6,371 nt of DNA from a virus (lineage: Duplodnaviria; Heunggongvirae; Uroviricota; Caudoviricetes): the IMG/VR virus record IMGVR_UViG_2778261504_000024; one strand, 5' to 3'. Each line of letters begins with the position of its first letter. Positions within the stretch are counted from its first letter, which is position 1. Position numbers and translations under genes: made by a program. The notes under the pieces are model-generated. The model was not told the origin of the DNA and did not search any database. It saw nothing but the letters and a program-made list of their open reading frames with translations. This document shows, in pieces, positions 3,541-3,620 of this stretch.

Positions 3541-3620
3541 GGTGTGTTTCATGTTATTTTGGAGTGAAACACACGTCAAGTCTTTTTTGTATTTCTTTTT
3601 TGTGTATACTGAAACACACC
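3541..3620. promoter_or_regulatory. Divergent promoter/operator switch region with three copies of TGAAACACAC
   Basis: 10-mer TGAAACACAC at 3565-3574 and 3610-3619 (direct) and as the inverse GTGTGTTTCA at 3542-3551; the first two form a perfect 10-bp inverted repeat with a 13-bp spacer. Leftward sigma70-like promoter on the minus strand: -35 TTGACG (plus 3579-3574), 17-bp spacer, -10 TAACAT (plus 3556-3551). Rightward -10 TATACT at 3605-3610 with weak -35. Operator copies overlap both promoters. Confidence 0.5.

Follow-up and report, generated by a model that had tools for sequence, protein, structure and literature searches.

A putative ribbon-helix-helix repressor of the YlcI/YnfO family and its covarying operators at the divergent promoters of a phage-inducible chromosomal island

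Small repressors with a ribbon-helix-helix (RHH) fold that act on operators at divergent promoters are a well-known kind of regulator, represented by Mnt and Arc of phage P22, omega of pSM19035 and CopG of pMV158. In the immI region of P22, the two RHH repressors are combined with the divergent promoters Pant and Pmnt and with the antisense RNA sar. The Stl-type repressors of Gram-positive phage-inducible chromosomal islands (PICIs) have a helix-turn-helix domain and are larger, unrelated proteins. In these islands, which include the Staphylococcus aureus pathogenicity islands (SaPIs), the Stl or Rpr repressor gene and the excision-replication operon are divergently transcribed and the control region separates the two (PMC6092414), and repression is lifted by helper-phage proteins. 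In contrast, the published trigger of the Gram-negative PICIs is AlpA. Only this activator has been reported for them, their repressor has been called unclear, and their difference from the Gram-positive islands has been called a mystery (PMC6092414). The control region described here lies in a 6,371-nucleotide stretch of viral DNA (IMG/VR record IMGVR_UViG_2778261504_000024), referred to below as the window. By its gene content, which comprises int, alpA, a RepA-family helicase gene and ssb, the window belongs to an enterobacterial satellite of the PICI type, of which it covers the arm with int, alpA and the replication genes.

A rightward gene for a 101-residue protein of the YlcI/YnfO family (ylcI, 3641-3946, plus strand) is divergent in the window from a leftward operon led by an Icd-like gene (3238-3444, minus strand), and three short sites in the gap between them fall on the predicted promoters of both. 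Comparison with related loci suggests that the 101-residue protein, which models as an RHH protein, probably binds the three sites and represses the leftward promoter, PL. The likeness to P22 immI would then extend to small RHH repressors acting on operators that overlap back-to-back divergent promoters, to an RHH domain followed by a C-terminal helical oligomerization domain, which is the plan of Mnt and of the 101-residue form, and to a small antisense RNA, predicted in the case of the window, over the ribosome-binding site of the gene at the head of the repressed operon. The two regions differ in that they share no significant sequence similarity, and in that the window has one repressor gene instead of two, has three 11-bp sites and belongs to a satellite instead of a phage. 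Omega and CopG resemble the proposed repressor as RHH regulators on repeated short sites. However, neither has a sequence-level relationship with the 101-residue protein, and omega, whose sites are 7-bp heptads arranged in longer arrays, regulates the copy number and partition of the plasmid together with a toxin-antitoxin system. The placement of a control region between a repressor gene, in the window a candidate, and the operon divergent from it is shared with the Stl/Rpr islands.

The initial annotation of the window had described three copies of a 10-mer, two of them forming a perfect inverted repeat, in the gap between the RHH-like gene and what it took for a leftward replication operon, and each of these features was confirmed. 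The gap measures 196 bp (3445-3640), and the operon does carry replication genes. The 10-mer, TGAAACACAC, occurs in three exact copies at 3542-3551 (minus strand), 3565-3574 (plus strand) and 3610-3619 (plus strand), and no further copy with up to one mismatch was found in the whole window. Copy 1 makes a perfect inverted repeat of 10 nt with copy 2 and one of 13 nt with copy 3 (TTGGTGTGTTTCA and TGAAACACACCAA). A chance origin of the repeats was rejected, as at least three copies of any 10-mer appeared in 2 of 50,000 dinucleotide-preserving shuffles of the gap when only non-overlapping, non-trivial words were counted. A more fitting description of the repeat unit is a pseudo-palindrome of 11 bp, (G/C/A)TG-N5-CAC, which takes the form (G/C/A)TG-AAACA-CAC in the window and is typically GTG-N5-CAC across the related loci.

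Described in this way, the three sites are O1 (ATGAAACACAC, 3542-3552, minus strand), O2 (GTGAAACACAC, 3564-3574, plus strand) and O3 (CTGAAACACAC, 3609-3619, plus strand). A promoter scan places PL at 3551-3579 on the minus strand, with the -35 element TTGACG (3579-3574), a 17-nt spacer and the -10 element TAACAT (3556-3551). O2 fills the spacer and has one base in common with the -35 element, while O1 overlaps the -10 element, with which the 10-mer of copy 1 shares one base, and covers the predicted start at about position 3544, so that the placement of copies 1 and 2 given in the initial annotation also stands. The predicted rightward promoter, PR, has the -10 element TATACT (3605-3610, plus strand), which is preceded by a conserved T-run. 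O3 starts inside this element and covers the predicted PR start at about position 3617; the exact 10-mer of copy 3 begins on the last base of TATACT, and this single base is the overlap that had been annotated. The geometry of O1 on PL is the same as that of O3 on PR, because at each promoter the 10-mer copy shares a base with the -10 element and covers the predicted start.

The positions of these elements are kept in 53 related loci, 10 from E. coli and 43 from records of other species, nearly all of them Enterobacterales and one assigned to Pseudomonas. Sites in these loci were located by motif scanning, and one locus that is disrupted upstream of ylcI (L040) was excluded from the statistics. 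In nearly all loci, O3 is found at -31 from the ATG of ylcI and O2 at about -76, and most of the 53 have a homologue of O1 at -99, -101 or about -112. TATACT or TATAAT stands at -36 in 43 of the 53 loci, with the T-run upstream. Most of the loci have preserved the TTGA core of the PL -35 element, and 43 of the 53 have a TAnnnT hexamer at 17-nt spacing. The repeats lie on divergent promoters, as the initial annotation had it, and are conserved in position, with a sequence that is type-specific: it varies between elements and is common to all three sites within one element. O3 differs from the upstream sites of its own element by 1.0 mismatch per 10 positions and from those of other types by 2.98 (permutation p ≤ 1e-5). 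In the complete related element L054, which has the operator type of the window, the exact motif occurs only in this intergenic switch.

The 101-residue protein matches the NCBIfam model YlcI_YnfO_N (NF041551) at 68.4 bits, against a cut-off of 30, over residues 9-50, and RefSeq names its homologues YlcI/YnfO. Its N-terminal domain models as an RHH fold with a beta-strand at residues 11-18 (QLTTVRVP). In the full-length AlphaFold model (predicted local distance difference test score, pLDDT, of 77), an extended segment at residues 12-18 is followed by helices at 19-28 and 35-54, which gives the strand-helix-helix fold of about 45 residues expected of RHH proteins, and by a long helix at 59-100. 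Short forms of 58-64 residues lack the segment corresponding to residues 52-93. The sole Pfam match, to the antitoxin-type RHH family PSK_trans_fac, scores 16.5 bits, below the cut-off of 28.3. Profile alignment with hhalign gave an E-value of 0.008 and a probability of 5% for Arc and an E-value of 0.07 for Mnt, neither of which is significant. A PDB sequence search with the protein returned no meaningful match, and a tblastn search of deposited phage genomes returned no match. The hhalign register places TTVRVPHDV over FNLRWPREV of Arc, and in this register, which comes from a low-probability alignment, the outward-facing residues would be 12, 14 and the invariant R16. In proteins with the strand QQLNARFP, the outward-facing residues would be Q, N and R. 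The base-contacting residues of Arc are likewise Q, N and R.

The sites covary with this beta-strand, for which 18 variants were seen. The window variant, QLTTVRVP, is accompanied by the site GTGAAACACAC, and QLFTVRVP by GTGA(A/T)ACACAC, QMTTVRIP by GTGAAATACAC, QSLTARIP by nTGnCTTACAy and KQISIRIP by CTGAATCACAn. The variant QQLNARFP is found with GTGAATCGCAC, QKLQARAP with GTGGACTCCAC, QKIQARAP with CTGGATTCCAG and LQVSVRLP with GTGAACACCAC, while KKLEARVP, KRFDVRVP and QKMSARVP are found with GTGTCAGCCAC, GTGTCGGACAC and CTGGCACCCAG, respectively. Across the loci, operator distance and the distance between the eight-residue strands are correlated (Mantel r = 0.69), and a partial correlation of 0.57-0.66 persists with control for the remainder of the domain, for the spacer DNA or for the 5' untranslated region (UTR) (p = 2e-4). 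With the beta-strand controlled for, the rest of the protein adds almost nothing (r = 0.08). The variable residues of the strand, in a protein modelled as a monomer only, covary with the central 5 bp of the sites. These comparisons indicate that the operator and the beta-strand that would read it have diversified together into at least 18 types.

The same comparisons make it unlikely that the sites belong to another binder. AlpA could occupy them, as Vis does PLE/PLL of P4, or the binder could be the product of the Icd-like gene, a protein of the helper phage or a factor of the host, in which case the RHH protein would act elsewhere, for example as the antitoxin-like partner of orf62, a small basic 62-residue open reading frame (ORF) 3' of ylcI (3989-4177, plus strand; phrog_21027, E = 6e-14). 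However, the operator type is independent of the alleles of AlpA and of the Icd-like protein (L001, L005, L006, L009 and L011-L013) and also of the type of replication protein. In L001, AlpA is 100% and the Icd-like protein 92% identical to that of the window, and the operators and beta-strand differ. The Icd-like genes of L005 and L009 are near-identical and their operators are different. Conversely, L006 and the Xenorhabdus and Photorhabdus loci have the same beta-strand and operators, with Icd-like and AlpA similarity that is divergent or undetectable. A host factor would leave the 18 element-specific site sequences unexplained, and orf62 was detected in just 5 of the 53 related loci. Of the proteins compared, the RHH-like protein is the best candidate for the binder, and the comparison supports its earlier nomination.

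It is very unlikely that the repeats act as RNA, in the manner of seqA, seqB and seqC of phage P4, where complementary copies in a transcript or a processed small RNA pair to block translation and bring about termination. The element follows the P4 plan in its homologue of alpA/vis, its Icd/Kil-like first gene and a nested frame that resembles eta. Copies 2 and 3 are each complementary to copy 1, and all three would lie in read-through transcripts from alpA. Judged by the predicted starts, however, the copies are almost wholly outside the PL and PR transcripts, and they sit exactly on the -35, -10 and +1 elements. In several types all three sites have one orientation, which makes pairing impossible. 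Depending on the type, O1 stands in inverted or in direct orientation, always within a few fixed position classes, and such flips at fixed positions fit a symmetric dimer on a pseudo-palindrome and not RNA pairing. A scan of the window gave no C4 or isrK match even at E ≤ 1, while P4 gives both. An RNA of the P1 c4 or P4 CI type was rejected for the locus because this Rfam scan returned nothing. Finally, the repeats are short, stand near replication genes and lie in an AT-rich stretch (GC content 0.40-0.44), but a role as replication-origin iterons for the helicase or initiator of the leftward operon is exceedingly improbable, since the motif is confined to the switch in the complete element and the region immediately downstream of the helicase gene (662-875), where PICI origins have been reported, has an iteron-like array of its own, TCCCCACTTTT; moreover, the same operators occur with different replication proteins and vice versa.

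Several observations weigh against a repressor role of the YlcI/YnfO protein at these operators. L008 has the strand QQLNARFP, like L010, and its sites are of the GTGAATACCAT type, related and non-identical, and two Q/S/R types have different sites. The beta-strand codons and the operators are 40-110 bp apart, so part of the covariation must be co-inheritance. An acceptable -35 element was sought for PR and none was found, which leaves the activity of PR uncertain. Published work explains induction of the islands by the activator AlpA and reports no repressor, and overexpressed AlpA alone induces EcCICFT073 (PMC6092414). Any repressor must therefore be bypassed or weak.

Additional operator-like sequences are found in the switch. 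A partial fourth copy, GTTTCAG (3632-3638, plus strand), is the reverse complement of the left half of O3 and lies between the Shine-Dalgarno sequence GAGGAG (3627-3632) and the ATG of ylcI. It covaries weakly across types (2.08 versus 2.54 mismatches, permutation p = 4e-4) and is perfect in the LTTV and QQLNARFP types. In some types it follows the operator, as in ATGAAAC/GTTTCAT of Xenorhabdus and CTGAATC/GATTCAG of the QQLNARFP type, and it could be a weak half-site or a stem in the 5' UTR. Two copies of TTTGTATTTC, at 3519-3528 and 3586-3595, are operator-like on the minus strand with 2-3 mismatches. Together with O1-O3 they make up an array with a spacing of 22-23 bp (-121, -99, -76, -54 and -31 from the ATG), and weak sites at -54 are present in four other types as well. 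Three genomes, two of Pectobacterium and one of Yersinia, carry two loci each (L025/L044, L026/L051 and L017/L028). The types differ in all three, which is too few to be set against chance.

The likeness to P22 immI includes a predicted RNA. In a conserved stretch between O1 and the start of the Icd-like gene (3444-3528), a structured plus-strand RNA with two stem-loops and a U-rich tail is predicted, antisense to the ribosome-binding site and start codon of that gene. The predicted folding energy of this interval is -34.2 kcal/mol on the plus strand (z = -4.85) and -20.8 kcal/mol on the minus strand (z = -2.28), and in 46 of 48 loci the plus strand gives the stabler fold of the two. Among 44 aligned sequences, 16 of the 23 predicted pairs show compensatory changes. 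In the terminal hairpin, pairing is kept at 97.4% on the plus strand versus 84.7% on the minus strand, and G.U pairs occupy 80 cells of the alignment when it is read as the plus strand, compared with 2 when it is read as the minus strand. A candidate extended -10 element, TGGTATGAT, stands at 3429-3437, and an RNA made from it would start opposite the start codon of the Icd-like gene. No Rfam family was found for the structured RNA in the scan of the window at E ≤ 1. The structured RNA looks like a cis-antisense RNA over the ribosome-binding site of the first leftward gene.

The region resembles the left operon of P4 in a further respect. A minus-strand frame of 393 codons (3238-4419) starts 4 nt past the stop of alpA (4424-4630, minus strand). 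From there it crosses orf62, ylcI and the entire switch in antisense, and its end encodes the Icd-like protein. Over 3445-4423 it has no stop codon, compared with 12 and 20 in the two remaining frames of this strand. The related loci, too, have a minus-strand frame that is nearly free of stops over ylcI and the switch, with about 8 in 2,488 switch codons versus about 200 in each of the others. The open interval has a median length of 311 codons, and in 45 of the 53 loci it extends over ylcI and 150 nt or more of the switch. Where a gene for an AlpA-like or BRO-N-like protein is nearby on the upstream side (40 loci), the first start codon of the frame lies within 20 nt of the stop codon of that gene in 25 loci, several of which have the two codons overlapping. 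The predicted peptide of the frame, rich in Cys, Ser and Arg, looks unnatural, so translation itself may be what is selected.

In the window, the frame carries the phage_ICD_like domain at residues 344-387, and PL lies inside it. This gives the arrangement of a P4-type left operon as predicted from sequence, in which an alpA gene is followed by a long frame that ends in an Icd/Kil domain and contains an internal promoter for the short product. In P4, a minus-strand ORF at 8168-8812 overlaps vis and has phage_ICD_like at residues 161-208; this ORF is eta, with kil nested at its end. It spans a C4-family RNA (8420-8507, 74.9 bits) and an isrK-like element (8615-8692, 60.8 bits). Both left operons thus have, in collinear order, alpA/vis, a long frame ending in the Icd/Kil domain, accessory genes and a primase or helicase gene, and in both the immunity determinants lie inside the long frame. 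They differ in that P4 immunity is exerted by RNA on the strand of the frame (C4 family, isrK-like), whereas the window has no such RNA in Rfam at E ≤ 1 and instead has a divergent candidate repressor gene, operators and a predicted cis-antisense RNA. Work by Forti and colleagues from 1999 is said to have found that translation of eta allows transcripts from an upstream promoter to escape Rho-dependent termination and immunity.

The Icd-like protein matches phrog_1743, which is the PHROG of the C-terminus of the P4 eta/kil ORF. Its link to P4 Kil is drawn because of such shared profile families: a pairwise BLASTP comparison of the Icd-like protein with the P4 ORF was not significant, and a tblastn search of phages found only a capsid-forming PICI deposited as a phage (vB_KppS-Ant) and not P4. 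This 16.5-kb element (LR881103.1, 'Escherichia phage vB_KppS-Ant') has the island layout and, at 8578-9552, an annotated gene of 324 residues that ends in an Icd-like domain. Neither a homologue of ylcI nor an immunity RNA in Rfam is present in the element, which leaves its eta-like frame without an embedded repressor.

Taken together, these features are best explained by the following proposed mechanism. RHH dimers at O2, in the PL spacer and touching the -35 element, and at O1, over the -10 element and start, would block RNA polymerase at PL and thereby silence the leftward operon, which comprises the Icd/Kil-like gene, accessory genes, the helicase gene and ssb. Binding to O3, over the -10 element and start of PR, would limit synthesis of the repressor itself by negative autoregulation. 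Through its long C-terminal helix, the 101-residue form probably assembles into oligomers larger than a dimer, like P22 Mnt, which would make binding cooperative. By analogy with P4, the plus-strand antisense RNA over the ribosome-binding site of the first leftward gene may serve as a second brake. AlpA-dependent upstream transcripts may override both brakes if they are translated continuously through the eta-like frame across the switch. This last step is speculative and is modelled on P4; a bypass of this kind would fit the report that AlpA alone induces EcCICFT073. The initial annotation had proposed a repressor-controlled bistable switch. The comparison supports its operators and its binder, but nothing indicates bistability, and a single negatively autoregulated repressor is a homeostatic circuit and not a two-state one. 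That annotation also did not include the PICI context with its activator AlpA, the predicted plus-strand antisense RNA or the eta/kil-like frame.

A more general scheme is possible but doubtful. In this scheme, Gram-negative PICIs would have a master repressor in the form of a hypervariable RHH protein (YlcI/YnfO) with at least 18 operator specificities, whose gene and operators are embedded antisense in an eta-like frame. Quiescence would be maintained by the repressor together with the cis-antisense RNA over the ribosome-binding site of the Kil/Icd-like gene. On induction, AlpA-driven transcripts would be translated without a gap from the alpA stop codon onward, over the repressor gene and the switch. 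In this way they would get past Rho, the antisense RNA and the repressor all at the same time, and would collide with transcription of the repressor gene.

The remaining genes of the window conform to the PICI layout. The integrase gene lies at 5130-6371 (minus strand), and the gene list places a minus-strand ORF of 76 residues between it and alpA, whose product matches Pfam Phage_AlpA at 33.3 bits (cut-off 21) and is the homologue of P4 vis. In the leftward operon, the Icd-like gene, which encodes 68 residues and matches NCBIfam phage_ICD_like at 70.4 bits, is followed by a gene of 157 residues. A DUF4222 gene is listed next, then the RepA-family helicase gene (873-2288), a gene of 83 residues and ssb (1-423), all on the minus strand. 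The interval 662-875 is AT-rich (GC about 0.40), holds several copies of its repeat, including a 12-nt perfect inverted pair, and is probably the replication origin of the island. Between orf62 and the convergent alpA there are two terminator-like hairpins on the plus strand, one at 4244-4264 with a T-run to about 4273 and one at 4365-4392 with a T-run to about 4397. The second has an 8-bp stem and a GCAA loop, and the long minus-strand frame is open through both.

In the closest E. coli relative of the window (94% identity), the element lies between tRNA-Pro/yejM and yejO and has genes for a major capsid and a head-decoration protein just past ssb. This is the layout that the Penades group has described for capsid-forming PICIs (bioRxiv 10.1101/2022.09.08.507074), and by its gene order the capsid-forming type is established in this relative. 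An element with the same layout is carried by E. coli Nissle 1917. L054 (NZ_CM135183.1, approximately 8330-23470) is a capsid-forming island that lies within the large-terminase gene of a prophage, and a helper-embedded arrangement like this one has been described (PMC10111431). A 521-nt query consisting of the switch and ylcI matched 1,436 of 5,426 complete E. coli genomes, among them the probiotic strain Nissle 1917 and an O157:H7 strain (L010).

The mechanism proposed for the window is a classical one, yet it bears on an open question for a very common family of mobile elements. What would be new, judging from these sequence comparisons, is a function for the YlcI/YnfO family, a candidate repressor in Gram-negative PICIs and the large number of specificity types. 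No paper was found in the literature that gives YlcI/YnfO a function, links an RHH protein to PICIs or describes such specificity types. If the 101-residue protein is the repressor, it offers a handle on how these islands stay silent. In that case, the table of covarying strands and sites is a ready-made candidate recognition code, and the family would provide a natural set of orthogonal small repressor-operator pairs. Moreover, distinct specificity types would explain how several islands could coexist in one genome.

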